DNA from: an uncultured Christensenella sp.
GTDB taxonomy: Bacteria > Bacillota > Clostridia > Christensenellales > UBA1242
NCBI GenBank assembly: GCA_964554475.1
Contig: CAZKOT010000001.1
Span: forward strand, 1 to 63,347
DNA: 63,347 nucleotides
Reading direction: 5' to 3'
Shown: positions 15,545 to 63,347 of the stretch, in pieces
Numbering within the stretch: position 1 is the first letter of the stretch
Layout: every line of letters begins with the position of its first letter
Made by a program: the position numbers and the translations under genes
The notes under the pieces: model-generated
What the model was told of the DNA's origin: nothing
The model's database searches: none
The model's input: the letters and a program-made list of their open reading frames with translations, nothing else

Positions 15545-15981
15545 GCCAAAACCCCTTGAAAAATTTAATAAAATTTTATAATAACCAATTTTTTAAATTA
15601 TAAATTATGAATTTCATTAATAGGTTACACAAAAAGAAGATTTTAAGTCAAGTAAATGGAATGAAAGTAGAAAAATATATTGCGAATTTTCTTTTTCACA
15701 AATAAAAATAAAAAAGATATTTTTAAAATATCAAATTGTTTCACAACAAAAAATAAGTTTCATAATGAGGTTTCATATTAATTAATAAAAATTTAAGAAT
15801 ATAATTAAACTAATAGTTTAAAAAAAATTTAAAATTAAATTTAAATTAACAAAAAAAAATCAAAATTTGTTTTGAAGTTTTTTTTTATTATGTTAATATT
15901 ATTTTGTAAATTTAATTGCTTTTGAATAAATGCAATTTTATTGCGAAAAATACGAATAGAAAAATTGTTTTGGAGGAATAT

Positions 15982-16359
15982 ATGAATTATTTAGTAGCAG
16001 TAGCAAGCAAAATATTGGGTTTTGTTGCTTCCCCATTTCAAGTCGGTGGTTGGGAAAATATAGAAGATAGAATACCCGAGGATTTTGCTTGGATAAAAAA
16101 TGTTGTTGATGCCATCACCATGATACTTTGGCCACTTTTAATTGTTGTCGGTGCTGCGGGAATGATTTATGCTGTTATTCTTGGAGTTAACATGGCGAGA
16201 GCTGATTCAACTGAAAAAAGAGAAGAGGCGAAAAAACGTTTAATTAATGTTATTGTAGGAATGGCAATTGTAATTGGATTAATATTATTCATGCAATTAT
16301 TCATGTACGTCATAATGCCGAATTTCATACCAACAGTTGATTTAATACCAGCAGAATAA
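15982..16359 (+). CDS. Small two-TM membrane protein, possibly a VirB2/TrbC-like pilin or an accessory T4SS protein
   Basis: The track ORF starts at a TTG at 15916. An in-frame ATG at 15982 lies 5 nt after GGAGG. The product is 125 aa. A hydrophobic leader is followed by two TM helices, 'ITMILWPLLIVVGAAGMIYAVILGV' and 'VIVGMAIVIGLILFMQLFMYVIM', separated by a charged loop 'ARADSTEKREEAKKRL'. The gene is divergent from the T4CP operon across a 370-bp AT-rich spacer. Confidence 0.3.
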   Translation: MNYLVAVASKILGFVASPFQVGGWENIEDRIPEDFAWIKNVVDAITMILWPLLIVVGAAGMIYAVILGVNMARADSTEKREEAKKRLINVIVGMAIVIGLILFMQLFMYVIMPNFIPTVDLIPAE

Positions 16360-27629: not shown

Positions 27630-30600
27630 TTATGGATAGAGTATGTAAGTACTTTCCCAAATTAAAACAGGATAGGTTCCGCCACTATTCCAAACATTTG
27701 AATAAAGTGCATTAAGTTCATTGAAAAGATTCACCGTTGAAATATCAATTGAATTAAAATTTCCAGGTGGATTATTTATAGGTGAAACACCTATAACAGA
27801 AATGTAATAATTATAAACTCCTGACGAAAGAGATGTTGCCCCCGATAATCCAACTAGCAGTCCCAAATATCGAGTTGTCAATCCTCCTGGACTTCCAAGA
27901 ATTGAATTACTTTCCGAAATTAAGGTTGTTGTGAACGAATTGTTAATTTTTCCACCATTTTGATTTGCTATATATCCAGAAATACCACCAATATATGCAT
28001 TACGAGCTGATGTTGCAGTATTTAAATATTCAACAATTAAACTACTAGCGATATTATAACAATTTCTTATTATACCTTCATTTCTTCCGGTAATTGCTCC
28101 AACATAAGTGTTTGAAGCAGTTCCAAGAGTAATTTTTGCCCTTAAATTACCTTTATTATAACATTCAACAATTTTTCCAATTAAGTTTTCTGAAGAAGAT
28201 GTTCCACCAAAATTAAATGCAGCAACTCCTCCAATATTTACTGTTTTTGCTCTTCCTGTAATATTTGCTAGATTTCCGCTTTTTCGAATTGTTCCTGTAT
28301 AGGTTGTTTCACCCTCAGTTATTTGATTGTTTGCGTAAGCAATTCCGCCGATTGTCAATTCTGAACTTGTTATATCAGTATCATTAAAATCCAAAGTTGC
28401 GAGGTTCACACAAAGTTCAATAATTCCATAATTGTTGCATGCAATTCCACCATAGTAGTAATATATTCCAGCAGTAGTTGCTGAAGAGAATGAAACATTC
28501 TTGATTTGACAGTATGAAATTAAACCAAAATTTTCATTTACTAGTGATGAAAACCTGAGCGAATTAACATCAGTAGAGGAAATATTTCCGTGAGAAATAT
28601 TGGCAATTATATTAAGATTTTTAATAATACCATTAGCATTTAATCTAACAAACAAACCAATATTTGTTGCTTTAATTGATGTTGTGTTTGTAAAACTCCA
28701 ACTTATAGTCTTATTATCTCCGTCATAAATTCCACCAAATGTCGAAATCATTACATCAACAAGAGTTAAGTTTGCAGTTTGTTTAAAATTAAACACTTTT
28801 TCTATTTCTTCAACTATTCCATCACCGTCATTATCTTTTATTAAATATGTTGGCTTTGTCGGTCTGTAAATCATGTTTGCAAACTGCACTGAAGTTGCAA
28901 TGTTATAAGGATTTGATTCTGTTCCTTCCCCACTTTCAAACAAATTAAAATTAATCAAAGTAAATTCGTGATCAACTCCCTCAATTGTCAAAACAAAACT
29001 AGAATGATTGATTAGTCCATTTTCACTTACAGAATTAAAGAAATATTTAAACTCAGAAGCAATGCTTCCATCTGGTGTGATTGCACAAACCTTAATTCTA
29101 TGAAGACCAATCAATTCGGGCATAAATTCCATTACTGTTGAGGTATATGTTCTTGTTGATAAAACATTAAATGTTTCAGTGCTCTCGTTCCATGAAACAA
29201 TTTCATCAACTATTCTAAAAGTCCCAGAACCAGAATGTGTCCATGCAATTTTTCTTGAACTTGAGAAATAGGAAAAATCTTCAATTGCAACTGGTGGAGT
29301 AACATCATATCTCACACTGTAATCTGACATTAAAACATTATTTGAATCTGTAATTGGTATTACACAAATTTTGAAATATAAGGTCCCCGCACTAATTAAT
29401 GATTGAATACCCGGAGTAATTGGATCAGTATCAAACATACTTTCAATTTGACCATAATAATAAGAAGGAATTGAAGATTCATATTGTCCAAGTATTGCAA
29501 TTTCTGCATATGTTTCACCATCATAACTATACTTAAACAAGTAATCATATCCAGTAACCCCGACTACATTACCCGTAAATCTCCATTTAATAATGAATCC
29601 ACCATCAGGAGATGGATCAGACAAGTATTCAACACTATCGATTTCAGTAAGTTTTTTGAAATTACCACCCAAAGTTTCATTTGAATTAATATGTTCTTCC
29701 CCACCTAACGCTTTGATTTTTACCTCATAATCAACGTTAACTCCTAAACTTTCAAATTTAATAATATCATCCCCTGTTAATTGTGAAGGATTAAATTCAT
29801 TTGTTAAAGTTGTAAAAGTAACAACTTGAGGCAATCTTGTGAATGTTAACAAATATGAAGTACTTTGAGTGACCTCATTCCATCTAATAACTCCATTATC
29901 AATTCTAACATTAGAAACTTGTTGCAGTTTTGTAAATTCGGCATGTGAAGCTTCTAAAGTTTTTCCAATTAAATATTTGTAAATTTTTCCATCAGTGTGC
30001 TCAAACTCACCATTTGAGTATGGTTGAATAGAAACATCATAATCACCCGCAAGATAAGCTTGAAACATTTCAATAAACTCGGGCGGAGGAGATGGATTTT
30101 CAACGCTTAACCATTGACCAATGAAATCATAAAGAACGAACGTATCTCCCAACCAAGCGAAAGTGGAATATTCTTCGTAATGGAAAGGATTGTAAATATG
30201 AGTGCCGAAAAACGAAATTTTATATCCTGTAACGTTGCTTCCACCCAAATCAGTAACATTTCTCCAAACCAGATTTCCCTCATGAACTCCAATACTTGCT
30301 ACGGAATTAAGCATAACTGCATTAATACCATCCATATAACTCGAAATTGCATAAATAGGAGATCCTCCAAAAGAACTGGTTGTTGTTCCAATGGTTCGGA
30401 AATTGTAATTGTTATAACCTGGAGTAATAGATTCATAAATAGAGGTAAGACCCACTTCACCATATGGTAAATCAAACACTAATAACTGTGTTGAAGTTTG
30501 AACATAAACAAGATAACCACTGTTGTTTAAGACATTCGCCCATTCAAATCTTCCATGAACAATGTCAACGGATGGCGAATCAAGTTTACTTATTTCTCCT

Positions 30601-33600
30601 AAATCTGTTACTTTTCCTGATATTACATTTGTTCCGTTACCAATAGCTTGAATAGATAATTCATAGATAATTATATTTGTTTCACCATCTCTTGTTTCAA
30701 GCGGAAGAAAATCCCAACTGCTACCTGTGTGCAAAGCTTCATAAGTATCAATACCTGGTGATTGAGGCACTGCAATAATATTATAACCTGTTGCAAGTCC
30801 ACTAGAACTATATCCAAGAACTCCTCCATCCATGTTTGCATTAACGGTTGGTAATACAGTTATGTTTACTGCGGTTGATGGGTAACCATGAATTGTCATA
30901 TTACTATCACCACTGACAAAAACATATAATCTGTATTGTCCTGCAGGTAAAATGTCTGCATTTACTAGGTCTACCAAATTTACACTTCTATTATCATTGT
31001 CTCTTGTTGCAATTTGAAAACGATTTCCATTTGCAATATTTTCTGCAAGGACAGTGTAGTCAAATTTATCAGTTGTTGAATAATGATATCCTGCTTTAAT
31101 AGGATAGGTTGACTCGCTCCATGACAATACATAATTATCAATACTAACCGAAGTCGGCGCTGAAGGAATGTAAACGTTAATTCCCAAGTTATATCTTGAA
31201 TTGAGCCAATTATAATCATCTCCATTTTGCTTTACAGAAATTGTATAAAATCCCGAAGGAACATTTGTAAGTTCATTTGTAAACCAATTCATAACTGGCC
31301 AACCAAATTCAAAATCTTCACTTAATCCCAAATAACCTCTAATAACTTCCCAATCTTCAGGACTTGCATCCACCATATTAGGTCTAAAGAAATTTGCAGC
31401 AGGAACAGTGTAATAATTAAACCCCGTTCCCCCCTCATTTTGTAATCTTAATATAATAGTATTATTGTCAAGTTCATCTGGCCAAGGATTGTAATTAAAA
31501 GGTAAATTCGATGGAATAAAACGATAAGGGGTTGTCGAACTGAATTCATAATCCCAATTAGCATCACTCCATAAGAGTGTTCCATTTTGCACAATTAAAT
31601 TTTGAGGAGCGGACAATTTAACTACGGGTGCTAAAAATCCAATATTATACGACTCAAAACAGCCCAAACCACTCGGTGCAATTTTTAAGGAATCATTTGT
31701 GCAAACTGCACGCACACCCAAAAAGTAATACAAGTTTTCATTTAATTCTCCAAAATAATCTGGCAATTCCCAACTCCACGAAGCATTTTGCATTGAATCA
31801 AGAAGTGTCGGGGGAGTTGAAATAAATGTAAGATATGTGATTTCATCTTCATATCCCCATTCACCTTCGCCAATTTCGATTAATTGTGGTTGTCTATAAT
31901 AAATATAATAACCGTTTGCTCCACTTACATTATCCCAATAAAGATAACCATTTTCAACATAAACCGGAACTTCTGAAAGTTTGGTAAAATTATAATTAAT
32001 TGAATATGCTGAAGAAATGAAATAATAACCGCCAACTTCAGGTTCGCTTTTTCCGTCAATACGAACTTTAAATGTATAAGTTCCACTTTGATAGTATAAA
32101 TCATTCAAACTATCATTATATTCATCACTATTCATTTCCAAATAACTATCTAAAAAATTTAAATGATTGTAGTTATAAATATACGCAAACCCACCTTCAT
32201 AATGTAAACAGCTCATTGTAATGCTATAAGTTCTGTCTGCCACTGCTTGCCACGAAACTGTAAATTGATTTTTTGAACTTTCATTCCAATCAAAAGTAAA
32301 ATCATTAGATGAATCATTTGGATTTGGAGTCAATCTTATATTTAGAGTGCTTGAAGATAAATCTGAATTTAATAAATTACTTGATGCAGAAGAAGTTGCC
32401 ATAATTGCAAAAGTATAATCCACATCATTTTGAAGTTGTTGTGCTCCGCTATAAAAAGCACTACTTAATCCAATAAAATATCCCGAATCAAGCCGTGATT
32501 CGTCAAGGTTATAATTACGATTAAGAAGGGTTTCTTTTGCAATAAAATTAGTTGTCCAATCATCATCTATGAAAACTTTAAATTCACCATTTAAAATTGA
32601 AATTTCGGTTGGTGCAATAAGTTTATGTGCTGTGTAATTTAAATCTTGATAAGAGTAACTTCCGCCAGGCAGAGAAGTATAACTCATCCTATAGCGTGAA
32701 TCCAAAATAATGTTTTCACTTTTAATGATTCCTGCTTCCAAATTACCACTACATTTCAAATTAGCAACAATATCTCCCGAAATACCTGTAAGAAGATTGT
32801 TTTTTGTTGTTGGTGAAGCAATTTGAATATAATTTAATTCGGTTTGAAGAACTCTTAAAAGATATCCTTGGCAATCAACATCATCAGTACTATTCCATGT
32901 TAAAACACCATTCAAAGCATAAATATTATTAACTGGTGCTAGTCTTTTACCCGAAATTTGAGTAATTTTTGAATCTAAAAATCCATTCATAGAAACTTTT
33001 ATTGTGATTGTAAAAATTCCTGTAGGAATGTAAAAATTTAAATCTTCTGTTATAGGGTAAATTAGTTTTCCAGCAACTGGAGACAATTCATTATTTTGGT
33101 AACTTGTTCCTGCAACGGAAAGAGTGTAAATAGCATTTATTGGATTACTTTCAATGTCGGCCTGCAATGAAATACTTTGTTCATCATTGTTTGCTTTTAA
33201 AAATCCGTCAAAAGTAAGAGCATTTAATTTGGTGCGAGTTGGTGCAGAAGTTGCCGAATTAATTGCATTTAAAGTACCATTATAAAAAGCAAACACTTCA
33301 AAGATATATGTCCCTCCAACTACTTCAACTCCTTGATATGTCCAAATGTCAGGAAATTCCCATACCTGATTTGAGTTTAAAATAACTGGGACTTCTGTAA
33401 CATCTAAAATAACAGTATCAATTCCATCTGTATGTTTAACCGTTAAAGAAAATTGAGCATTACTGTTAACAATGCTTTCGTCAATGGTTAAATATGTGCC
33501 AAAAATATCAATTGAAGGTGCATCTAATTTTTGTTTTGCAATAACACTACTTGCTCCTGAAAAATAATACCTTCCATTAATTTGAGTGTCTCTATCCCCA

Positions 33601-36600
33601 AACGGTAAAACATAAAAATCAATTATTCCAGAAAAAGTAATATCTGCAAAAATTTCGCTTGTGAAATCATTATAAATATTTGAAGTGAAAACAGGAGTTG
33701 TAGGGGAATATCCCGATTTATGATAATAAGCATAATAACCCAAGTCAACTGATGCTGTAGTGCCAGCCCAACTGAAAACAGCAAGTTGATTAACTGCCAA
33801 ATTTGTAATGGAAGGAAGTCTTTGAATAATTATTTCTTCCGAAAAATCCGAATTATAATAATTCTCGGCATTTGCCATTACTCTAACATTAAAAATTCCA
33901 TTTGGAGCATTTTCAAAAATTAAATCTTCAGTGCTAAATGAATTTGTGTAGGTAATTGCAAAAGGTGTTTCAAAATTATTAATATAAACATTATATTTTT
34001 CTGCACCGCTCACCAAATCCCATGAAATTGTAACTTCAAGCTGCTCAACTGTGTCTTCTGCTTCAGCAATAACATTTAAAACCTGTGCTAATTTTATTAA
34101 GTTAGTTATAGTGGAAAATTGAGAAGATAGAAAACCTGTATAAGGATTTGTTAAAGTCAATTCTTCCACAACTATTGCACGAATTCTAACTTCATATATT
34201 CCTGCGTCTGAAATAAAATTTGCAATCGAGGTATGGAAAATGGAAATTGAAGTAACAGGGGTTCCTGCTTCAAAAGCATTAACAACAATTGAAATATTTT
34301 CCTCACTCGAATTCTCAATAATAATTTCGTAACGGTTAGCATTTGCAGTTTGCACCCAACTTATAACATCATTATCTATTAAAGGTGCATTCATTGTTGT
34401 AATTCTGTCAAGATTAAAAGAATTAACAGCACTATTTAAGTAATAAACATCCCCGCCTTCTAATCTACCCGCTCCAATTAACCTAGTTGCGATTGATTCA
34501 CCCGTTGTCGTGACAAAAGAAATTGAATAAGAGGATGAATTATTTATATTTGCGACTGTTTCTTCATTACCCGTCCCTTCATTGAAAATAACACTTGAAA
34601 CTTCATTTGTTAAATTATAAATTGAAAAAATTTCACTATCAAAAACAGTTACTTCGGTAACAGCGGGCAATCTCGTCAGTGTAAAAATTGTAATTTCGGA
34701 AGGAATAAAATTTGAATTGACAGCATAAAGAGTTAAAACGTAATTACGCACGGCAAGTGTATTTGAAAAAAGCGCATTAGTATTTATTATAAATTCTTCA
34801 GGAGCACCGTCAACAGAAACAAAAAAACCCGTGGCGCTTTGAACAGCTCCCCATGAAACAGTTACCGATGTTTGATTTAAAGTTAATTCTGGAGTTACAT
34901 TTGTAATAAGTGGGGTCTCAAGTTTAGTAACTTCAAGAGCATTCGAAAACAATGAAGAAATAAAACTTGCGTTCTCTGTATTAACTGTAACATCTTCAAT
35001 AACGCTTTTTACTGAAAAACTAAAATTCTCGTCTAACTCAGCAAAGACAGCAGGATAATCATTTAAATCTAATGAGTTAGTACTAGAAATTAACGTTTGA
35101 GAATAAGTAAGACCTTTTGTAATAATAACTTCATAATACTCTGCATCCGCATTTTCATTCCAACTCAAAATAAAATCTGTAAAGCTTAAATTATTTGGTG
35201 TTGAAAGTCTATTAATAGTGAATGTAGCTGTTGCACTGTCCAAATAATAAGGTGAAGAAATTGTTTCCAAAGCAACAAAATTAATAACAATTTCATTTGT
35301 TACACTAAATTCAAATGTAGAAAAGTTGATTTGAACTCCTTCCACAGTAGCATAGATTTGCTCTGCTGAAAGTTTTGTTAAAAGTGAAGGGTCAATCACC
35401 ATTGTAATTTCTTCGTTTTCTGAAATTAAAATTGAAGTTGGGGAGATTAATTTTTCAACTGTTATTTCTGTTGGTAATGACTTGAAAAGATTTCCAACTC
35501 CACCATCATCAGCGCTATCATTTAGCGAAAGAGCAATGGCATTAAAGAAATAAATTCCAACATTTAAAACAATGTCCGAAACATTGTGCATTCTATCAGT
35601 TCCTGTTAATCTAACAAGTCGTTCCGATAATTCCAGTACTCCATCATCGTTATAATCGCAATAAATATCGTAAGCTTCAGCATTTACAATGGTTGAAACA
35701 GTTAAATTTCCATTTTCTCTATTAAAAGTCAAAGTGGGTGAAGCGAGAGTTGAAAAAACCCTATAAACAATGGAAGAAGAAAAATCAATTGCATTTAAAA
35801 TCGTATTATTGTCGCCCATTGCTTTTACTGAGAAAATATAATCCCCAAATGGTAAATTTGCAAAAGTATATTGCAAATTTTCAGTTGTTCCGTTAATGTA
35901 AAATTCACCATCTCTCGTTAATTCAAAATTATATGTAACTGCATTTTCAATTTCGTTCCAATTCCATGTAACGTTTTCACCGTTAACCATATGAGTTGGA
36001 GCGGAAGAAATATTTGCAAGTCTTATAATAGTAATTTCTGTTGGCAAAGAATCAATTAAATTTCCGCCCGCGTCAAAATTATCATCTGTTGAAACCGCAA
36101 CTGCAGAAAAAACAAAACTTCCTGAAACATCAACAATATGCGAAACATCACAAACTCCCCCATTTTGCAAAAGAACAACGGGTTCGCCAAGTGCATCAAG
36201 TAAAACATCACCATCATATAAAAGAATATATTCATCTGCATTTTGAATTGAATTTCCAAATGGTATAACTGTTAGTTGCTCGGTTTCATTATCAAAAGTT
36301 AAAACGGGTGAATCTAATTGTGTAAAAATTCTAAAAGAAACAGAACCAAAATCCATTGAATCCAAATAATTTTGATTATTGCCTATTGCCTTTATAAAAA
36401 ATTCGTAATCCCCAAAAGTAAAATCATCAAGTGAATAAGTAGAATATGTAGTTGTTCCGTTCCTAAAGGGACCTGGATTCTCGTCCTTGTAAATTTCAAA
36501 ACTATAATTAACTGCTCCAGTGATCCCATCCCAAGTTATCGTTTCATCAATTAAAGGAGTAATATATGTTGTATCACTCAACGGTGTAATATTTGCAAGT

Positions 36601-38309
36601 CTAACAACATTATAATTTGCAGGTTCTGCTGAAAGTAAATAATAACCTTCTTTTAATTCTAGTTCTTCGTCATATTCAAATTCATCATCAAAAGGAGAAA
36701 CACTTATTATATAGGGTTCGTCACCACTTTTTGCAATAGGAAAAAGACTGTTAGTTGAGCCTAATGTTAAAGTAATTGTTGTCGTACCACTTTGAGTTGA
36801 AGCAATATTTTCACCGTCAATTGTAACAGTATAACCCAAAGCACCTTCTGAACGTATAAAATTTAATGAACTAATGCCTCCACTTGTATTATGTAATAAA
36901 CCTGAAATATTACCTAATTGTTTAATATTTAAAATATTTGAAAAATCACTTGCAACCTCAAATTCTTGTGTGGGCATTTGTCTTGAAAAAACCTCAAAAA
37001 TTCCTGCGCTTTGTTCAAATGTGTAAAAATCTTCCGGTTGAAGAAAAGAATCTCCCATGGGCAAAACAACCACTGAAGTTACGGTATTTCTAATAAGTAT
37101 TTGTGTGTTTGATAATGTTGTTGAAACAGACTTTGTTAGCGGAGAAAATGAAATCGTGGGCGGAGCAAGTTTAACAACAGTTATTTGATTTGAATCTGCA
37201 CTATCAAGGGAAATAATATCCTCTGTTACTGCACCAATTGCTTTAATAGTAATAAGATTATTCCCAATTTCCCATTCTTCAAAATTATCATGAGAAACAG
37301 TTAATTTATCAATAGTTCTAGTCCCCAAACTATCAGTTATTGTTAAAACATATTTTGAAATTAAAGATGCCTGTGAATAGTCCCATGAGATTCTATCATT
37401 TGAAAAAGAAATTTCTGGAGCAACTAGTCGTGTAAGGTTAACAGTTTCAGTTGCACTTGTGTAAACAATATCTTCAATTGTTAAGACGGCATTAACACTA
37501 ATTGAATAATCATCAACAGATGACATATCATCAGGAATAATGAAATTACTATCGCTTGTTTGATAATTACTACTTGTTTGAGGAACAGTTAATTTATTAA
37601 AAACAATATTATATAAAACTCCCTCAACCCCAACTTCAGTCCAAGAGAGCGTTGAGGTGCTGGGACTAAAATTTAAATTTGTAGGCGTAGGAACCACTGC
37701 AAAAGAAAAAATGGCAGGTTCAGAATTATTATAACCCTCTCTTTTTGCAATAACAGTAGCAGAATAAATTCCACTGGCAAGAGGAATTTTTTCTTTTATA
37801 TTAACATTATTCGTAAAAACATTTTCAGATTCAAATTGTAAAACATCATTTTGAAATATTTGAATATTATAAGAAGTTGCAAAAATCGTAGGCGAAATTG
37901 AGGTAGCATTCCAACTAAGATAGCTTGTTTCACTATTATATGTAAAACCAGTAACTGAGTTAAATTGTTCAAGATGTCTCTCTACTGTAACGGTGAAATA
38001 TGCATAACTTTTTCCAACATTTGCTTCAATAAGTGCTATTCCTTCATTGACAGCAAAAAGGGTAAAAGTATTAGGGTCAACATAAGCGATGTTTTGGTTA
38101 TTTGATTTAAATTTAACTTGCTGAACTATAGCTCCTCCAGAAGCAATCAACAAAGGTTTAATATCAATCGTGTCACCTTCTTGCATAACAGTATTTTCTT
38201 CTAAAAATTCAACTTTGTAATTTTGAGTAACATCTTCTCCACATGCAGAAAACAAGCCCATCGAAAACAAGCACACAAACAATAAAATAAATTTTTTGAT
38301 TTTTTTCAA
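27630..38309 (-). CDS. Giant surface lipoprotein (3,559 aa) with an N-terminal Big_2-like domain, long FN3-like/Ig-like arrays and a C-terminal GLUG-motif beta-helix region
   Basis: The start is TTG. The lipobox is 'LFSAC' at residues 19-23. 'VTQNYKVEFLEENTVMQEGDTIDIKP...NIAYVD' is Big_2-like. Recurrent 'LSW..V.GA..Y.V' FN3-like units follow. The C-terminal 'NIGGVAAFNFG...GGIAYANNQ...VGAITGRNEGIIRNCYN' shows GLUG/right-handed beta-helix periodicity. Confidence 0.7.
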   Translation of the reverse strand: MKKIKKFILLFVCLFSMGLFSACGEDVTQNYKVEFLEENTVMQEGDTIDIKPLLIASGGAIVQQVKFKSNNQNIAYVDPNTFTLFAVNEGIALIEANVGKSYAYFTVTVERHLEQFNSVTGFTYNSETSYLSWNATSISPTIFATSYNIQIFQNDVLQFESENVFTNNVNIKEKIPLASGIYSATVIAKREGYNNSEPAIFSFAVVPTPTNLNFSPSTSTLSWTEVGVEGVLYNIVFNKLTVPQTSSNYQTSDSNFIIPDDMSSVDDYSISVNAVLTIEDIVYTSATETVNLTRLVAPEISFSNDRISWDYSQASLISKYVLTITDSLGTRTIDKLTVSHDNFEEWEIGNNLITIKAIGAVTEDIISLDSADSNQITVVKLAPPTISFSPLTKSVSTTLSNTQILIRNTVTSVVVLPMGDSFLQPEDFYTFEQSAGIFEVFSRQMPTQEFEVASDFSNILNIKQLGNISGLLHNTSGGISSLNFIRSEGALGYTVTIDGENIASTQSGTTTITLTLGSTNSLFPIAKSGDEPYIISVSPFDDEFEYDEELELKEGYYLLSAEPANYNVVRLANITPLSDTTYITPLIDETITWDGITGAVNYSFEIYKDENPGPFRNGTTTYSTYSLDDFTFGDYEFFIKAIGNNQNYLDSMDFGSVSFRIFTQLDSPVLTFDNETEQLTVIPFGNSIQNADEYILLYDGDVLLDALGEPVVLLQNGGVCDVSHIVDVSGSFVFSAVAVSTDDNFDAGGNLIDSLPTEITIIRLANISSAPTHMVNGENVTWNWNEIENAVTYNFELTRDGEFYINGTTENLQYTFANLPFGDYIFSVKAMGDNNTILNAIDFSSSIVYRVFSTLASPTLTFNRENGNLTVSTIVNAEAYDIYCDYNDDGVLELSERLVRLTGTDRMHNVSDIVLNVGIYFFNAIALSLNDSADDGGVGNLFKSLPTEITVEKLISPTSILISENEEITMVIDPSLLTKLSAEQIYATVEGVQINFSTFEFSVTNEIVINFVALETISSPYYLDSATATFTINRLSTPNNLSFTDFILSWNENADAEYYEVIITKGLTYSQTLISSTNSLDLNDYPAVFAELDENFSFSVKSVIEDVTVNTENASFISSLFSNALEVTKLETPLITNVTPELTLNQTSVTVSWGAVQSATGFFVSVDGAPEEFIINTNALFSNTLAVRNYVLTLYAVNSNFIPSEITIFTLTRLPAVTEVTVFDSEIFSIYNLTNEVSSVIFNEGTGNEETVANINNSSSYSISFVTTTGESIATRLIGAGRLEGGDVYYLNSAVNSFNLDRITTMNAPLIDNDVISWVQTANANRYEIIIENSSEENISIVVNAFEAGTPVTSISIFHTSIANFISDAGIYEVRIRAIVVEELTLTNPYTGFLSSQFSTITNLIKLAQVLNVIAEAEDTVEQLEVTISWDLVSGAEKYNVYINNFETPFAITYTNSFSTEDLIFENAPNGIFNVRVMANAENYYNSDFSEEIIIQRLPSITNLAVNQLAVFSWAGTTASVDLGYYAYYHKSGYSPTTPVFTSNIYNDFTSEIFADITFSGIIDFYVLPFGDRDTQINGRYYFSGASSVIAKQKLDAPSIDIFGTYLTIDESIVNSNAQFSLTVKHTDGIDTVILDVTEVPVILNSNQVWEFPDIWTYQGVEVVGGTYIFEVFAFYNGTLNAINSATSAPTRTKLNALTFDGFLKANNDEQSISLQADIESNPINAIYTLSVAGTSYQNNELSPVAGKLIYPITEDLNFYIPTGIFTITIKVSMNGFLDSKITQISGKRLAPVNNIYALNGVLTWNSTDDVDCQGYLLRVLQTELNYIQIASPTTKNNLLTGISGDIVANLKCSGNLEAGIIKSENIILDSRYRMSYTSLPGGSYSYQDLNYTAHKLIAPTEISILNGEFKVFIDDDWTTNFIAKETLLNRNYNLDESRLDSGYFIGLSSAFYSGAQQLQNDVDYTFAIMATSSASSNLLNSDLSSSTLNIRLTPNPNDSSNDFTFDWNESSKNQFTVSWQAVADRTYSITMSCLHYEGGFAYIYNYNHLNFLDSYLEMNSDEYNDSLNDLYYQSGTYTFKVRIDGKSEPEVGGYYFISSAYSINYNFTKLSEVPVYVENGYLYWDNVSGANGYYIYYRQPQLIEIGEGEWGYEDEITYLTFISTPPTLLDSMQNASWSWELPDYFGELNENLYYFLGVRAVCTNDSLKIAPSGLGCFESYNIGFLAPVVKLSAPQNLIVQNGTLLWSDANWDYEFSSTTPYRFIPSNLPFNYNPWPDELDNNTIILRLQNEGGTGFNYYTVPAANFFRPNMVDASPEDWEVIRGYLGLSEDFEFGWPVMNWFTNELTNVPSGFYTISVKQNGDDYNWLNSRYNLGINVYIPSAPTSVSIDNYVLSWSESTYPIKAGYHYSTTDKFDYTVLAENIANGNRFQIATRDNDNRSVNLVDLVNADILPAGQYRLYVFVSGDSNMTIHGYPSTAVNITVLPTVNANMDGGVLGYSSSGLATGYNIIAVPQSPGIDTYEALHTGSSWDFLPLETRDGETNIIIYELSIQAIGNGTNVISGKVTDLGEISKLDSPSVDIVHGRFEWANVLNNSGYLVYVQTSTQLLVFDLPYGEVGLTSIYESITPGYNNYNFRTIGTTTSSFGGSPIYAISSYMDGINAVMLNSVASIGVHEGNLVWRNVTDLGGSNVTGYKISFFGTHIYNPFHYEEYSTFAWLGDTFVLYDFIGQWLSVENPSPPPEFIEMFQAYLAGDYDVSIQPYSNGEFEHTDGKIYKYLIGKTLEASHAEFTKLQQVSNVRIDNGVIRWNEVTQSTSYLLTFTRLPQVVTFTTLTNEFNPSQLTGDDIIKFESLGVNVDYEVKIKALGGEEHINSNETLGGNFKKLTEIDSVEYLSDPSPDGGFIIKWRFTGNVVGVTGYDYLFKYSYDGETYAEIAILGQYESSIPSYYYGQIESMFDTDPITPGIQSLISAGTLYFKICVIPITDSNNVLMSDYSVRYDVTPPVAIEDFSYFSSSRKIAWTHSGSGTFRIVDEIVSWNESTETFNVLSTRTYTSTVMEFMPELIGLHRIKVCAITPDGSIASEFKYFFNSVSENGLINHSSFVLTIEGVDHEFTLINFNLFESGEGTESNPYNIATSVQFANMIYRPTKPTYLIKDNDGDGIVEEIEKVFNFKQTANLTLVDVMISTFGGIYDGDNKTISWSFTNTTSIKATNIGLFVRLNANGIIKNLNIIANISHGNISSTDVNSLRFSSLVNENFGLISYCQIKNVSFSSATTAGIYYYYGGIACNNYGIIELCVNLATLDFNDTDITSSELTIGGIAYANNQITEGETTYTGTIRKSGNLANITGRAKTVNIGGVAAFNFGGTSSSENLIGKIVECYNKGNLRAKITLGTASNTYVGAITGRNEGIIRNCYNIASSLIVEYLNTATSARNAYIGGISGYIANQNGGKINNSFTTTLISESNSILGSPGGLTTRYLGLLVGLSGATSLSSGVYNYYISVIGVSPINNPPGNFNSIDISTVNLFNELNALYSNVWNSGGTYPVLIWESTYILYP

Positions 38310-53160: not shown

Positions 53161-54666
53161 ATGGAAGAAGAAAAATTTTTGGCGGTGAACAAAAATGAGT
53201 TTGAAAGTAAACAGGTTCTAGTAGAATGCGTAATCAACTTGGAAAATGGAGAACAAATTGACAAAGTATTATCTCTTTCTGCAGATGCATTTATTACAAG
53301 TGTTGAAGTCCTTGATAAAGAAGGTAAAATTTCGGGGGAAATTTATACCTCAGTTTTGTTCCAAACTCCTGATGGTCTAGTTGGAACAATTGCATCTGTC
53401 AGTTCGTTTCATGAAACTTTCAAAAATGATACTTTGGCGCCACAACAAAAAGTTAATGGGGAGGCAAAAATTGTTTCAATCACTCCAACTTCTGTTAGCG
53501 AAAGTTCTTTTAAAATACTAGTAACTGCCGAAATACAACTCATTTATGTTGGAAATACAAAAGTCGATGTTTACAGTAATGAGGAAGAAGGTTTTTGTTC
53601 AAAATTTGGACAAATTGAAACAAGCATTCTTACTGATGACATTATTGTTGACATAAAACCTGAAATTAAAGTTACAGTAAAAGAAAATATTAATAAAATA
53701 CTCATTGTCGACTCCAATGCAATCATTAAAGAACTAACAGCGGGGGCAGGTTTTGTTTCTGTTACAGGAGAAATAAATACTTATTTAGTTTACATTAAAG
53801 AAGAAGGCGTCTTAGCCACATCTCAAACAAGCGATACTTTTAAAGAAGAAATTGAAGTTGCAAATGCAAGTAAGGAAAGTTTAATTGAAATTTGGGCAAA
53901 AGTGCGTAAGAGTGAATTAAAAGCGATAGTTGATAATAATGAAAACATAACAATAACAACTCCCATTGCGCTTAATTTAAAGGTTTACGGAAAACAAGAA
54001 ATCCCTGTTTCAACGGATATTTACAGTTTAAAGAACGAACTAGAACTTGTTAAAACTCAAATTACAAATGTTAAACCTCTATCCCCTAAATTTTTTGAAG
54101 GAAAAATTGAAGGAAATTTAACTCTTTCGGAAAACGATTTACGTATTGACAAAATTTTAGCTCTCAGTGCCCCGAGATTAACCCTTAGTAATTATTACGT
54201 TAATGATGGTGAGGTTAATCTTGATGGAATTGTTCAAGCAAATGTAATTTATTTAAATGACACTGAAAATATTGTAAGTTCGGTTGAAATTGAAGTTCCT
54301 TTCGTTGTAAGTGAAAAAATTCCCGAAGAAAATGGATTAATAAAACTTACAGCACAAGCTGTGCTTTCGGATTGCGATATACTTGCAAAACGTGGTAAAG
54401 AAATTTATTTTGATTGTAAAATTAAAGCATATGTTAATTTGTGGACTGAAGAAAATTTTGAAGTAATTAGTGGAGCAACCGTTGGTAGAGGTTATCCAGA
54501 AAAAGATGCATCAATAGAAATCTTTTTTGCTCGTAGCGGTAACACTTTTTGGGATATTGCAAAAGAATTAAAAATAACTCAAGATGTTTTGGTTAGTCAA
54601 AATCCAACATTAACTGATCCATTAATTGCAGATGAAAAAGTTGTTGTATATTACGGAATTGATTAA
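53161..54666 (+). CDS. DUF3794 (SPOCS) domain protein with a C-terminal LysM domain
   Basis: 501 aa. Repeated beta-rich modules carry 'LSADA(F/V)...V' patterns. The C-terminal 'NTFWDIAKELKITQDVLVSQNPTLTDPLIADEKVVV' is LysM. Confidence 0.5.
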   Translation: MEEEKFLAVNKNEFESKQVLVECVINLENGEQIDKVLSLSADAFITSVEVLDKEGKISGEIYTSVLFQTPDGLVGTIASVSSFHETFKNDTLAPQQKVNGEAKIVSITPTSVSESSFKILVTAEIQLIYVGNTKVDVYSNEEEGFCSKFGQIETSILTDDIIVDIKPEIKVTVKENINKILIVDSNAIIKELTAGAGFVSVTGEINTYLVYIKEEGVLATSQTSDTFKEEIEVANASKESLIEIWAKVRKSELKAIVDNNENITITTPIALNLKVYGKQEIPVSTDIYSLKNELELVKTQITNVKPLSPKFFEGKIEGNLTLSENDLRIDKILALSAPRLTLSNYYVNDGEVNLDGIVQANVIYLNDTENIVSSVEIEVPFVVSEKIPEENGLIKLTAQAVLSDCDILAKRGKEIYFDCKIKAYVNLWTEENFEVISGATVGRGYPEKDASIEIFFARSGNTFWDIAKELKITQDVLVSQNPTLTDPLIADEKVVVYYGID

Positions 54667-59600: not shown

Positions 59601-60338
59601 ATTACACTTTCACTTATAGACACTCAAGCACCAAATATTGCTCTTTTGGGAAATGAAGTAATATATTTAAACAAAGATGCAGAATTTTTAGATGATGGAA
59701 TTAATGTTTGGGACAATTTTGACGCAGATGCTCAACTTACAATTATTGTAAATTTATATGTAAAAAATGATGGCGAATTTGATTTAATTGAAACAAATGA
59801 TGTCAGTGGAATTTATTATTTTAATTTTACTCCAACCATATGTGGAGAATATCTTTTAAGTTATCAAGCAACTGACACCTCCGAAAATGAATCCGAAATT
59901 ATTTCAAGAACAATTCACGTTATTCACCAACCTTTGTCATCATTAGAAATTGAACCCATTAATTACGCCACGCAGTATAAAACGGGCACTAGTGTGGAAT
60001 TTCAAATAGACTTATCACAGTACTCTTCAACTGACTACAATTTTGATTCTATTTTCATTTGGTATGTTAACGGAATAGAAGTTCAACGAGGGACAGAAAA
60101 AACTCTTACTTATGAATTTCAAACACCTGGAGAATACACAGTATCAGTAAGTGTGGAGAATCTAACAGAACTTGGAATAATTGAAATTGTTGACGGACAA
60201 GCATACACTGTAATAGTGGTTAGTTCCACAGTTTTTGAACAATATGGAATATATATTATCGCAGGTGGTATAATCTTAATTGTCATTTTCATTGTTATTT
60301 CTGTTGTAATAAACAGACGAAGAAAATTTTATTTTTAA
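56616..60338 (+). CDS. M6 (InhA-like) zinc metallopeptidase-domain surface protein with LRR and Ig-like regions and a C-terminal TM anchor
   Basis: 1,240 aa. The N-terminal anchor is 'FIFLFITFALFFCAGLVFYC'. 'NTAVHELGHVLGWPDYYMY' is HExxH plus the PDYY of M6 immune-inhibitor-A peptidases. 'NLQVVNLANNQLNNI' is LRR. The C-terminal 'IIAGGIILIVIFIVISVVINRRRKFYF' is a TM anchor. Confidence 0.55.
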   Translation: MKFSNLSKKNFKSFIFLFITFALFFCAGLVFYCDKENRNESSNNYDYTYTQKINNLAESVGFSAPLQSFYEYGGSPITVYNFLVVARFNGEAEKMTSQTTLDMGTPSTADDITLTHYELIDRMFNSTSEYSVKRYYQEISNGRLNLQTIFVIGETSLQLTQTRSECGNKDYNGGTGYDPNATHTFGGYTAKVSELIEYEILNQICGEATDFIEDYYPATSDFNNDNYIDSISILLLPDPYDTSINPDDPGEVVINWADLLWAHSNNVNLWAINTYGSSFTSLGYDCDIENFRYTYNFETIDAGKYMMERLDLFNPNPSGYPKNNTAVHELGHVLGWPDYYMYYGTGWPATDSEEDTRAVDGWDIMSYNHFGYPQYPLTYNRLKQDWLDEQNIVEIMANGEYSIKPTNYEKIAELESIEVENDDLPQNRVFAYKIQSTIYPEQSIWLEYRKQYEGSFENNDDAVASEGLIVYRVDEGFNAAAGYEDYLSAGNVGAVPYNVYVFRNQPVLPISQEYIKTRYSAPLNLDNSSMGDEALHTGVYTPLGERTFTACDITWQDYPSGLSQSQITSSQVSFPDSEIVIEITSINPTTHELIFQITWEELAPESTAILREDFVDSNLYDKLLDLAGKEQSETLFSNDLIEEESLDLSNGNYTSLEGFEQLYFYNLQVVNLANNQLNNIIQINNIANNNPNAKFILVGNRFVLSSLNLENELRNLKYIWGFQKQIFPHEQNYLSENYLINASVSFSYFWHDNYYSSFSSTNLSFFINDSLVSSSLNIQTLNCVTGTNTFVFNGTGEQNFSSTLSITLISATLSSEIQDIERKGEMPYVIINGTSETVTITRNPENISTDTVSDYFSVIWTIQLTSKPAVSVTIERLNYFRIIDTVSPEITILGEEQINILQGESIALPTKELQIDDSGEIDLDYTFISSPLGTETNYWTKTYYEIIFNSETETIEIIDTLTTLTGSEEEGLYAIGYQCFDGSGNSSEIVYRRVFITLSLIDTQAPNIALLGNEVIYLNKDAEFLDDGINVWDNFDADAQLTIIVNLYVKNDGEFDLIETNDVSGIYYFNFTPTICGEYLLSYQATDTSENESEIISRTIHVIHQPLSSLEIEPINYATQYKTGTSVEFQIDLSQYSSTDYNFDSIFIWYVNGIEVQRGTEKTLTYEFQTPGEYTVSVSVENLTELGIIEIVDGQAYTVIVVSSTVFEQYGIYIIAGGIILIVIFIVISVVINRRRKFYF

Positions 60339-60621
60339 AATTTATACGAATAAAATGCGGCAGCATTTAGATCAAACGAAGTTTGGCCGTGTGAGGTTAT
60401 GAGAGAAAAGAAGGTTTAATGGCTAAAATGCGAAAGCATTCATGTCCGCGTTAAAATTTATTGTCTCTCATATCTTCAAAAAACAACAAATTATTTTAAA
60501 AATTTCCATAAATCGTTTGCATTTTTATTTTTATTCTTGTTATAATGTGAACATAAAATGTTTTAACAATTTAATAATTTGTTTGGCAACTGACCTGCCA
60601 AATTATGTATTATTAATTAAT

Positions 60622-60808
60622 TTGTGGAAATGTGGATAACTTTGCTAATTTGCATAATGTTTTCCACATTTTTTTATTTTTTTTGAGAAAAGTATAAATA
60701 TTTAACTATATGAATAAATATAAGGTTGTGGAAATGTGGATAACTTGTACCCGTTAGAACATAATTAAGACTTTATCAAATGTTTTCAATTGACAAAAAT
60801 GTGGATAA
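60622..60808. promoter_or_regulatory. DnaA-box cluster
   Basis: Perfect 9-mers TGTGGATAA (reverse complement of TTATCCACA) occur at 60631-60639, 60735-60743 and 60800-60808. Weaker TGTGGAAA-type boxes occur at 60622, 60726 and, on the reverse strand, 60661. The exact 21-mer 'ttgtggaaatgtggataactt' is duplicated 104 bp apart. Confidence 0.5.
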
Positions 60809-60890
60809 CGTTTACAATAAAAACACTCATGAAATAATTATGCATTACTACAATTTAAAAGCTTTAAAAATATATGTTAATTAGGAGAAT

Positions 60891-61289
60891 ATTATCAATA
60901 TTAAAGAATTAAACCCTATCGTTTTAGCATTTATTGGTGATGCTGTTCACACACTTTTTATTCGTAAAAGTGTTATTAATTTCAATGATACTTCAATAAA
61001 AAATTATAATCGCTTGACTTCAAAATTTTGTAGTGCAGTCTGGCAAGCAAAGGTTTTAGATGAAATTCGAAACACTTTAACAGAAAACGAAAATGAAATA
61101 ATAAGAAAAGCAAGAAACTCTAAAACTAATAATATTGCAAAAAACACAAGTATTGAAGAATATAAAAAAGCAACATCACTTGAGGCCTTAATAGGATTTC
61201 TATATCTAAATAGAGATGAAAAAAGACTGGAAGAAATATTAACTTGTTGTTTAAAAGGAATTGAAAATGCTGATTTCGGGAAAAAATAG
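60891..61289 (+). CDS. mrnC: Mini-ribonuclease III (MrnC/YazC)
   Basis: 'LNPIVLAFIGDAVHTLFIRKSVI' carries the RNase III catalytic signature. '...KARNSKTNNIAKNTSIEEYKKATSLEALIGFLYL' aligns with B. subtilis YazC. The frame is closed by a TAG at 60882-60884. The only possible starts before the conserved N-terminus are ATT or ATC (60891, 60894, 60900), after AGGAGA at 60883-60888. The track's TTG at 61014 would delete the catalytic motif. Confidence 0.55.
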   Translation: MINIKELNPIVLAFIGDAVHTLFIRKSVINFNDTSIKNYNRLTSKFCSAVWQAKVLDEIRNTLTENENEIIRKARNSKTNNIAKNTSIEEYKKATSLEALIGFLYLNRDEKRLEEILTCCLKGIENADFGKK

Positions 61290-61971
61290 TGTTTTTGAAG
61301 CAATTCAAAACGAAAAAACAATCAATAAAATTCAAATTTTGAAAAATGCACATGGATTTGAAAAAATAATTCAAATCGCAAAAGAAAAAGGTGTGCGTTT
61401 TGAATTTGTTGACAGGGTAGTTTTAGACAAGCAATTACAAAATCATCAAAATGTTATTGCTGAAGTAATTGATTTTGTTTACAGCAGTATTGAAGAATTG
61501 CTTAAAAAAGACAACAAAGAACAACTAATAGTAATTTTGGATGGAATTGAAGACCCTCACAATTTCGGAGCAATAATAAGAAATTGCGAGTGTGCAGGTG
61601 TCGACGGAATTATAATTTCAAAGCATAGGGCAGTTCCAATTAATGACACTGTTTTAAAAGCAAGTGCTGGAGCGGTCGCAAATGTAAAAATTGCAAGGAT
61701 AACAAACATCAATCAAGCAATTGAAGAATTAAAAGAAAATGGATTTTGGATTTATGCCTGTGAGGCTGATGGAAAAAATGTTTACCAAACAAAATTAAAT
61801 GGTAAAATTGCTATTATTATAGGAAATGAAGGATTTGGAATAAGCAAATTAACCAAAGAAAAAGCAGATGAAAAAATTTCAATTCCACTTTACGGAAAAA
61901 TTAATTCGCTTAATGCTTCGGTGGCATGTGGAATAATTCTTTTTGAAATTTTAAGACAAAAAAATCAATAA
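61261..61971 (+). CDS. rlmB: 23S rRNA (guanosine-2'-O)-methyltransferase RlmB (SpoU/TrmH family)
   Basis: 236 aa. It has 'VILDGIEDPHNFGAIIRNCECAGVDGIII', 'IIGNEGFGIS' and 'SLNASVACGIILFE'. The position after mrnC matches the Bacillus order. Confidence 0.8.
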   Translation: MKMLISGKNSVFEAIQNEKTINKIQILKNAHGFEKIIQIAKEKGVRFEFVDRVVLDKQLQNHQNVIAEVIDFVYSSIEELLKKDNKEQLIVILDGIEDPHNFGAIIRNCECAGVDGIIISKHRAVPINDTVLKASAGAVANVKIARITNINQAIEELKENGFWIYACEADGKNVYQTKLNGKIAIIIGNEGFGISKLTKEKADEKISIPLYGKINSLNASVACGIILFEILRQKNQ

Positions 61972-61995
61972 CAAAATTTAGGGGATTAAGAATAA

Positions 61996-62589
61996 ATGCG
62001 TGAATTTACCAATGAAGAATTAGTTGAAAAGGTAAAAAAAGGAAATGAAGTTGCAATTGAAATTTTATTTGCCCGTTTTAAAGCGCTTTTAAACAAAATT
62101 TCGAGAAGTTTTTTTCTTTTAGGTGGCGACAACGAAGACGTTATGCAAGAAGCGATGTTAGGACTTTACAAAGCTTGCTTAAACTACAAAGGAGGAGGGG
62201 AAACTTCCTTCAAAACCTTTGCAATTCTTTGCATAAAGCGAAATATTTTAAGTGCTATAAAAAAAAATAACACCATGAAAAACAAAATTTTAAACGAAAG
62301 TATTTCATTATCCAAAATTTTTTTTAATGAGGAAGAAGATGTTACAATTTCCTGCGACATATTATATCCCGATGAAAAAATAATTGAAAACGAAAGTTAT
62401 GAAGAAGTCAAAAAATTAATTTGTTCAAAACTATCACATCTTGAATTAAAAATTTTAAATCAATTTCTCATGGGATTGTCATATGATGAAATGTCAAAAA
62501 AATTAGACGTAACCAAAAAAAGTATAGATAATGCACTAAGACGAATCAAAGTAAAATTGCAATTTCTTTTACATAGAAAAATAAAATAA
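61996..62589 (+). CDS. sigH: RNA polymerase sigma factor SigH
   Basis: 197 aa. 'SFFLLGGDNEDVMQEAMLGLYKA' and 'KSIDNALRRIKVKL' match B. subtilis SigH 'SYFLIGADREDIVQEGMIGLYKS' and 'KSIDNALQRVKRKL'. Synteny with rlmB supports the call. Confidence 0.8.
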   Translation: MREFTNEELVEKVKKGNEVAIEILFARFKALLNKISRSFFLLGGDNEDVMQEAMLGLYKACLNYKGGGETSFKTFAILCIKRNILSAIKKNNTMKNKILNESISLSKIFFNEEEDVTISCDILYPDEKIIENESYEEVKKLICSKLSHLELKILNQFLMGLSYDEMSKKLDVTKKSIDNALRRIKVKLQFLLHRKIK

Positions 62590-62608
62590 TATTATTAAAT
62601 TTAAAATC

Positions 62609-62962
62609 TTAATTTTTATCAAAGGGATTATCCCTTTCTCTTTTGTTAGCTTCATGAATTTCTTTATCAAGTTCAACCGCTTGTACATTATCTCGCTTTG
62701 CGTTATTAAAATTTTCATCATTCTGTGTGTTTTTTCTTTTAAAATTAAACCCATTATCATTAATTTTAATTTTTCCTCTTTGTTTAAAAGTCATTAAAAC
62801 CATCCAAATTGCTGCAAAGCCAATTATTATATAAATCATGCGACTTAAAAAACTTGATTGTGTACCAAAAAAACCAGCAACAAAATCATATTGCATTAAT
62901 CCAATTGAAAGCCAGTTGGCAGCACCAACAAGAAGTAACACATAACAAATTAAGGTTATCAT
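62609..62962 (-). CDS. DUF378-family small membrane protein
   Basis: 117 aa. It has 'LLLVGAANWLSIGLMQYDFVAGFFGTQSSFLSRMIYIIIGFAAIWM', the typical DUF378 two-helix core. Confidence 0.5.
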   Translation of the reverse strand: MITLICYVLLLVGAANWLSIGLMQYDFVAGFFGTQSSFLSRMIYIIIGFAAIWMVLMTFKQRGKIKINDNGFNFKRKNTQNDENFNNAKRDNVQAVELDKEIHEANKRERDNPFDKN

Positions 62963-63057
62963 TGCTCACTCCTTAACTTTAGTAATAAAAATAGTTTGTG
63001 CTGTAATAATTTTTTTATGCTATTTATACTTTTTTTTGGTTTTACTGCTTAATTTTT

Positions 63058-63347
63058 TTGCCACCAAAAACATGGAGCAAATCGACATGTTTTTGCGTTT
63101 GGTGGCATAAGCAAAAAAAATCGGCCGTTTGCTGATTGATTTTTTATAAATTAAAAAATCGAGCAAACAAGCCCATTTCAAATAAAAATTTGCATACCTT
63201 AATCTTTTCTTGCGAAAACTTCGCACGAGAGTTGCCACCAAAAACATGGAGTAAATCGACATGTTTTTGCGTTTGGTGGCATAAGCAAAAAAATCGGCCG
63301 TTTGCTGATTGATTTTTTATAAATTAAAAAATCAAGCAAACAAGCCC
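63058..63347. repeat. Tandem direct repeat, two copies of a roughly 116-bp element separated by 57 bp, each with two internal imperfect palindromes
   Basis: Copy 1 is at 63058-63174. Copy 2 is at 63232-63347 and truncated by the window edge. The copies are about 97% identical with 3 differences. The first palindrome is 'gccaccaaaaacatg...catgtttttgcgtttggtggc'. The second is 'ggccgtttgct...agcaaacaagccc'. Confidence 0.65.

Follow-up and report, generated by a model that had tools for sequence, protein, structure and literature searches.

A conserved cluster of DnaA boxes, probably outside oriC, upstream of mrnC, rlmB and a SigH-like sigma factor gene in an uncultured Christensenella

In a 63,347-nt stretch of DNA from an uncultured Christensenella sp. 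(hereafter, the window), we identified a cluster of DnaA boxes upstream of mrnC, rlmB and a SigH-like sigma factor gene that we interpret, from its sequence, as a conserved non-oriC DnaA-box cluster which probably represses these genes and titrates DnaA. The cluster has a well-defined anatomy built around two identical tandem double boxes, is conserved in related loci, overlaps a promoter, and lies away from any switch in GC skew or gene orientation.

An exact-match scan of the window detected three perfect TGTGGATAA boxes, at 60631-60639, 60735-60743 and 60800-60808, all on the plus strand; the window has no further copy on either strand, against an expectation of 0.68. Under a first-order Markov model, a triple of perfect boxes within 200 bp has an expectation of ~2e-6 and was seen in none of 300 simulations. 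One-mismatch boxes are found across the window at the background level (21 against 22 expected), so the signal is a local cluster and not a box-rich genome. The 186 bp at 60623-60808 contain eight boxes with at most two mismatches (three perfect, one with one mismatch and four with two), making this the densest 250-bp stretch of the window against a background of about one such box per 250 bp, with several consensus or near-consensus DnaA boxes gathered in one intergenic region. The components of the cluster are as follows:

60622-60642, plus strand: 21-mer TTGTGGAAATGTGGATAACTT, copy 1, an exact repeat of copy 2
60623-60639, plus strand: double box of copy 1, a tandem of the degenerate box TGTGGAAAT (60623-60631, 2 mismatches) and the perfect box TGTGGATAA (60631-60639)
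60643-60725, no strand: AT-rich spacer between the double boxes
60660-60668, minus strand: reverse DnaA box TTTTCCACA with one mismatch, facing copy 1
60709-60717, plus strand: weak co-oriented box TATGAATAA with 2 mismatches, 9 bp 5' of copy 2
60726-60746, plus strand: 21-mer TTGTGGAAATGTGGATAACTT, copy 2, with a degenerate box (60727-60735) and a perfect box (60735-60743)

Both 21-mers thus consist of two co-oriented boxes that are offset by 8 bp and have one base in common. They reside in a gap of 552 bp (60339-60890) that extends from the end of the upstream ORF at 60338, a gene for a 1240-aa surface protein (an M6-like protease with PKD domains), to mrnC at ~60891, and has a GC content of 25%, compared with 30% for the window. 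The stretch between the double boxes is still poorer in GC (18.6% for 60640-60725, within the lowest 5.4% of 86-bp windows), an AT-richness that is unremarkable for intergenic DNA in a 30% GC genome. A preliminary description of this DNA had already recorded the three perfect boxes in a single orientation, the exact repetition of the 21-mer at 60622 and 60726, and an AT-rich gap of about 550 bp, all of which we confirmed. The GTGGAAA half-site that it placed before each box holds for boxes 1 and 2 but not for box 3, which is preceded by TTGACAAAAA, the -35 hexamer of a promoter. The position of box 3 in the promoter spacer, the tandem nature of the double boxes and the 10-bp classes of their spacing, described below, had been overlooked.

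The promoter overlapping box 3 and the genes that follow it are:

60790-60818, plus strand: sigma-70-type promoter, TTGACA (60790-60795), N17, TACAAT (60813-60818), an 11/12 match and the best in the gap
60891-61289, plus strand: mrnC (Mini-III RNase), the first downstream gene (Pfam Ribonuclease_3, E = 1e-19)
61261-61971, plus strand: rlmB (23S rRNA 2'-O-methyltransferase), overlapping the end of mrnC (Pfam SpoU_methylase; NCBIfam TIGR00186)
61996-62589, plus strand: SigH-like sigma factor gene, 25 bp past rlmB (Pfam Sigma70_r2 and r4)

The third perfect box lies entirely inside the 17-nt promoter spacer, 4 nt past the -35 hexamer, and the promoter is ~70 bp 5' of the mrnC ribosome-binding site. 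The Shine-Dalgarno sequence of mrnC is AGGAG at 60883-60887, which leaves only ATT (60891) and ATC (60894) as candidate starts; from the stop codon (60882-60884) up to 61014 there is no in-frame ATG, GTG or TTG, yet homology to Mini-III begins at ~60900. It therefore seems that mrnC either uses a rare non-canonical start codon or contains a sequencing error. The preliminary description had named the downstream genes mrnC-rlmB-sigH. The first two identifications are borne out by family matches, with RlmB scoring 250 bits against NCBIfam TIGR00186 (cutoff 160). The third is valid in a weaker form: the best NCBIfam models for the sigma factor are those of SigH (163 bits, E = 6e-48), but the score does not reach the equivalog cutoffs (208-295), and the gene is therefore called SigH-like here. 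The three genes likely form one operon. Elsewhere in the window (53161-54666), we found a gene whose 501-aa product carries SipL (SPOCS) domains; SipL is a spore-coat morphogenesis factor of Clostridia, and this protein suggests that the organism forms spores, consistent with the presence of the SigH-like gene.

Several other features of the window were noted. The region immediately 5' of the cluster, 60340-60612, shows moderate RNA structure (z = -2.7) with a long hairpin at 60392-60478, and includes a promoter-like TTGCAT-18-TGTTATAAT (~60517-60546), identified by eye and absent from the promoter scan, followed by a terminator-like hairpin at 60581-60603. This region could encode a short transcript or represent the terminator region of the upstream gene; its features are not conserved in the closest relative, L149. 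A known RNA element in the gap was ruled out, as no Rfam family matched at gathering thresholds over the window, the single weak match across 60300-63347 having E = 0.39, and ARAGORN found no tRNA genes in the window. Downstream, at 63058-63347, there is a tandem direct repeat of ~174 bp in two copies that are 98% identical, the second running off the end of the window, each containing a long hairpin (GCCACCAAA...TTTGGTGGC); the weak Rfam hit just mentioned is the sole family match for this repeat. In the left part of the window, genes of the conjugation type (13571-15544, VirD4/TraG coupling protein; 15916-16359, T4SS pilin) are accompanied by two giant ORFs, of 2680 aa (17056-25098, plus strand) and 3559 aa (27630-38309, minus strand), which together suggest an integrated conjugative element at 8000-38400.

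The conservation of the cluster was assessed in about 15 related loci, comprising 11 metagenome stretches, four hisS-linked loci (L087, L124, L147 and L152) and the genome locus L002. The site sits 5' of homologues of the MrnC, RlmB and SigH proteins of the window in 11 of the metagenome stretches listed; where RlmB is present in the related loci, it is 48-64% identical to that of the window. Conservation of the boxes in relatives had been proposed as a check in the preliminary description, and both double boxes are kept in 12 related loci. Specifically, two copies of the 18-mer occur in every one of the 12 loci compared, with copy 1 invariant in 11 and copy 2 in all 12. In an alignment of twelve sequences, the window among them, the sole change within a double box is one substitution in one copy, in L143, whereas the spacer between these invariant elements has diverged in sequence. 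The start-to-start distance between the double boxes is 104 bp in the window and 106, 96, 94, 94, 105, 95 (in many loci) and 85 bp in the others, that is, over the 12 loci it falls into classes of 85, 94-96 and 104-106 bp that differ by steps of ~10 bp, or about one helical turn. This pattern suggests that the two double boxes need to lie on one face of the helix, although only two or three independent 10-bp changes underlie the classes. Action with helical phasing has likewise been described for a distal DnaA box of the B. subtilis incC (PMC6669920).

The minor boxes are preserved to different extents. A reverse box is found 10-30 bp 3' of copy 1 in several relatives (TTATTCACA in L002, TTATCCACA in L152, TTATACACA in L088 and ATATCCACA in L149), and the weak box at 60709-60717 is partly retained as (A/T)TG(A/T)ATAA, with L123 having TGTGAATAA, only 1 mismatch from the consensus. 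The promoter-embedded box recurs in L149/L176 and L120/L165, likewise 4 nt after the -35 hexamer, the first gene in L120/L165 being hisS and not mrnC. It is absent from L002, L123/L143, L197, L124 and L087, about half of the related lineages, and in the lineages without it the cluster is ~90-230 bp 5' of the first gene. Two further observations concern the mrnC start. L149, the closest relative (7379-7388), and also L176 have a fourth perfect TGTGGATAA, besides that in the promoter spacer, which extends over the start codon of mrnC (AGGAGcaaATGTGGATAA), and in L002 (3600-3625), L123 and L197, TATAAT is located 4-7 nt 5' of the mrnC ATG without a Shine-Dalgarno sequence; the latter arrangement suggests that the subclade lacking the promoter box might make leaderless mRNAs.

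The genomic neighborhood of the cluster is variable on both sides. The upstream neighbors include the surface protease, tilS, spo0A, thrS, or gyrA with a UvrD-like helicase, and the downstream neighbors are either mrnC-rlmB(-sigH) or hisS; in all lineages, the cluster is directly 5' of, and co-oriented with, the first gene of a plus-strand block. In two loci, a divergent spo0A gene (encoding Spo0A_C and receiver domains) lies upstream of the cluster region (L002, 767-1573, where tilS intervenes between spo0A and the cluster; L120, 16-399), so that the cluster there is situated between two master regulators of sporulation initiation. In a scan of species genomes based on RlmB, the best relatives were 51-53% identical and the cluster was present in one of 80 loci (L002); it was absent from L001 and L003, the closest relatives by RlmB in that scan.

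The architecture of the double boxes points to DnaA as their ligand. Read on the opposite strand, the double box (TTATCCACATTTCCACA) agrees with the oriC box#6/#7 pair of B. subtilis (TTATCCACAAATCCACA) in 15 of 17 positions, with an equal 8-bp offset, and presents tandem co-oriented boxes of which the upstream one is nearest to consensus, as in the basal unwinding system (BUS) of B. subtilis, the module of box and trios in its oriC. The oriC scaffold used for comparison, ACTTATCCACAAATCCACAGGCCC, followed by DnaA-trios, comes from Pelliciari et al. 2021 (PMC8287927, supplementary oligonucleotide table). In a contig scan, the 19-mer TTGTGGAAATGTGGATAAC was present in at least 120 metagenome stretches that represent at least 72 distinct contexts, in DNA of 24-71% GC, and tblastn searches at the 19-mer loci with E. 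coli DnaA, DnaN, RecF and RpmH as queries showed that, among the matches listed, about 20 adjoin dnaA, dnaN or rpmH. In L200/L094, L173 and L084, the 19-mer is located 63-72 bp before dnaN, in the order box#6 then box#7, and is followed by CTA, TTA or ATA repeats; judged by sequence, this combination is the published basal-unwinding layout. The occurrence of the 19-mer at dnaN-linked origins, together with the match to box#6/#7, implies that the double box is a widespread, origin-grade DnaA anchor. Thus, DnaA is the likely ligand of the double boxes, on the assumption that the DnaA of this lineage has the same specificity. For the other 19-mer contexts among the matches listed, a Pfam survey of the flanking genes gave no dominant family. 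One group of 19 human-gut contigs (the L083 group, e.g. L126 and L179) carries the 19-mer once, unrelated to dnaA or mrnC and flanked by ORFs without informative families; this may be a further non-oriC DnaA site in a very common human-gut organism.

Alternatively, the 21-mers could be operators for a different protein (Spo0A, AbrB or another factor) and only resemble DnaA boxes. The conservation of 18-19 bases, which is beyond the need of a single 9-mer box, would be in line with such an operator, as would the proximity of spo0A in L002 and L120 and the presence of TGTGGAA, one base away from the Spo0A box consensus, TGTCGAA. That one mismatch, however, falls on the conserved C of the Spo0A motif, the repeat matches an experimentally defined B. 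subtilis box pair, and the identical 19-mer is found at dnaA-dnaN origins in bacteria of 24-71% GC, far beyond the spore formers, so we consider an operator of another kind highly unlikely. For Spo0A and AbrB in particular, we rejected this reading on account of the motif mismatch and the recurrence of the 19-mer at origins across phyla. Mobile-element ends, another conceivable source of direct repeats, were rejected given the equivalent conserved locus and the match to the DnaA consensus.

With DnaA as the likely ligand, the question arises whether the cluster is itself a replication origin, relocated or second, whose tandem boxes would deliver DnaA to adjacent trios so that the AT-rich spacer is opened. 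The preliminary description preferred a non-oriC cluster of the Bacillus type but kept open an oriC relocated by rearrangement; the former preference is supported by the conservation, the double-box geometry and the unswitched skew, and the latter has become very improbable. In favor of an origin, the double box belongs to the oriC box#6/#7 type, the 18.6% GC spacer occupies the side at which an origin should unwind, and each copy passes a lenient published rule, which calls for three or more DnaA-trios (3'-GAT-5', or NAN at the least) no further than 16 bp from the box on the weak-box side: NAN-triplet runs within 16 nt number 3 at copy 1 and 4 at copy 2. Yet runs of this length arise by chance with P = 0.49 (at least three) and 0.21 (at least four), the trio test being non-discriminating in AT-rich DNA and giving low scores even for true origins such as L200; moreover, the runs beside the double boxes are free of TAG repeats and have no conserved counterparts among the relatives. 

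The two defining properties of an origin, location at a GC-skew minimum with a switch in gene orientation and linkage to dnaA and/or dnaN, the usual situation in Firmicutes, are both missing at the cluster, and for this reason we give the origin reading so little weight. GC skew is positive on both sides of the cluster in the window and in all 12 related loci, and the genes 5' of the cluster are mainly on the plus strand wherever the length of the flank allows this to be judged, whereas at dnaA-linked control loci (e.g. L163, L201, L144, L101 and L105) the skew passes from negative to positive and the genes diverge. The cumulative GC-skew minimum of the window is instead at ~44-46 kb, where it coincides with a change in gene orientation. 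No DnaA box with one mismatch or fewer was found between 39.8 and 47.9 kb, and this minimum likely results from a minus-strand gene block together with the conjugative element to its left, rather than from an origin. As the preliminary description had stated, neither dnaA nor dnaN is nearby: both are absent from the window in a Pfam scan that took in 30 of the 36 ORFs with 110 aa or more, among them every ORF whose size would suit DnaA or DnaN, so that there is no dnaA within 60 kb upstream and 2.7 kb downstream of the cluster. Tblastn found neither gene in the related metagenome loci, nor was either among the called genes of L203, a 22-kb locus that likewise shows no skew or orientation switch at its cluster. 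The cluster is therefore, as expected outside oriC, free of a skew or orientation switch and of flanking dnaA or dnaN. We also considered inferring proximity to oriC, a typical though not strictly defining trait of clusters of the B. subtilis type, from gyrA, which adjoins the cluster in L124/L147/L152, and dropped this line of reasoning given that in L203, gyrB-gyrA is 2-7 kb 5' of the cluster and not beside dnaA, which is not within 12 kb.

As a conserved non-oriC cluster, the element most likely operates as follows. The two identical tandem double boxes would serve as high-affinity DnaA anchors with the geometry of the oriC box#6/#7 pair. At a distance of 104 bp, about ten helical turns, DnaA bound at both anchors would be on one face of the helix and could cooperate, with the boxes that lie between them, one reverse and one weak, presumably helping to bridge the two. 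When abundant or active, DnaA would fill box 3 with the help of the anchors further upstream, and RNA polymerase would be blocked. Through such repression, the expression of two genes for ribosome maturation and of a SigH-like sporulation sigma factor would depend on replication status, while the cluster as a whole would keep DnaA off oriC, that is, titrate it. A point against this model is that, by analogy with the B. subtilis BUS, filaments begun at the double boxes would extend away from the promoter.

How much of this function is gene-specific is where the main rival reading departs. Promoter occlusion cannot be the conserved core function because about half of the related lineages lack the promoter box, and since the flanking genes vary on both sides, an autonomous DnaA sink fits at least as well as gene-specific control. 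Under a pure sink, or 'decoy origin', the cluster would bind DnaA-ATP as the oriC anchor does and in this way only damp initiation, as do E. coli datA and the B. subtilis clusters, without a gene-specific role and with the promoter box secondary, a reading that we regard as possible but unlikely. Its appeal is that the invariant part of the element is the oriC-type pair of double boxes and not the promoter box, in a setting where neighboring genes differ among lineages, and that deletion of all six B. subtilis clusters results in over-initiation (PMC3245932). It does not readily account for the presence of a box at the same spot of an 11/12 promoter across three lineages that differ in their first gene, which suggests a transcriptional role, or for the position of the cluster in all lineages, co-oriented with and directly 5' of the first gene of a plus-strand block. 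The dual reading, repression combined with titration, parallels the two roles demonstrated for the six B. subtilis clusters and remains the one we favor. In a more daring version of the 'decoy origin', which we find doubtful, the paired oriC anchors in register would capture DnaA-ATP while the promoter box silences the SigH-like operon, coupling initiation to sporulation; to our knowledge, Clostridia lack Sda.

These findings extend the range of non-oriC DnaA-box clusters, which so far have been characterized mainly in B. subtilis and E. coli, to an uncultured lineage of gut Clostridia, where a very stereotyped cluster with two oriC-type tandem boxes appears to be under strong selection. In some members, the cluster is wired to the promoter of an operon for ribosome maturation and a SigH-like sigma factor, a candidate route from replication status to decisions on growth and sporulation in Clostridia. 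If the 'decoy origin' version were true, replication initiation would be directly coupled to sporulation entry in these bacteria. The 19-mer, which recurs at origins across phyla, may in addition be useful for seeding metagenome searches that look for origins and DnaA sinks.

The closest known counterparts are the six non-oriC DnaA-box clusters of B. subtilis, which bind DnaA cooperatively, control neighboring genes and titrate DnaA (PMC3245932). In that organism, dnaA, ywlC and yydA are repressed and sda is activated, and loss of all six clusters leads to over-initiation (PMC3245932, PMC4447404). Like them, the cluster described here consists of intergenic consensus or near-consensus boxes outside oriC and beside a promoter, but it differs in its locus (mrnC/hisS-rlmB-sigH) and lineage (uncultured Clostridia), in having two identical oriC-type double boxes with spacings that differ by 10 bp, and in the conservation of an equivalent site over many species. 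At the dnaA, ywlC and yydA promoters, as here, a DnaA box covers the core promoter and should exclude RNA polymerase; in contrast, here a single perfect box is placed exactly in the -35/-10 spacer and combined with distal double boxes, and the genes under control would be those for Mini-III, RlmB and a SigH-like sigma factor. With box#6/#7 of the B. subtilis incC, the anchor of the BUS (PMC8287927, PMC6669920, PMC10721633), the double boxes share the co-oriented pair, the 8-bp offset and the upstream consensus box. Unlike incC, the cluster has the module twice in the same orientation and is without a convincing or conserved trio array, a switch in skew or gene orientation, or dnaA/dnaN.

The E. 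coli datA locus is, as summarized in PMC3245932, similarly a chromosomal high-affinity DnaA-box cluster that reduces the DnaA available for oriC. Unlike the present cluster, datA is not promoter-embedded, and only the sink analogy carries over. With the help of IHF, datA stimulates DnaA to hydrolyze its bound ATP, and we know of no IHF in Firmicutes. A full-text search of a literature library turned up neither an earlier description of DnaA boxes at mrnC or sigH in Clostridia nor one of this operon as a DnaA target. As a type, the element is already known; its locus, its lineage and its design, with two oriC anchors in register, are new details.
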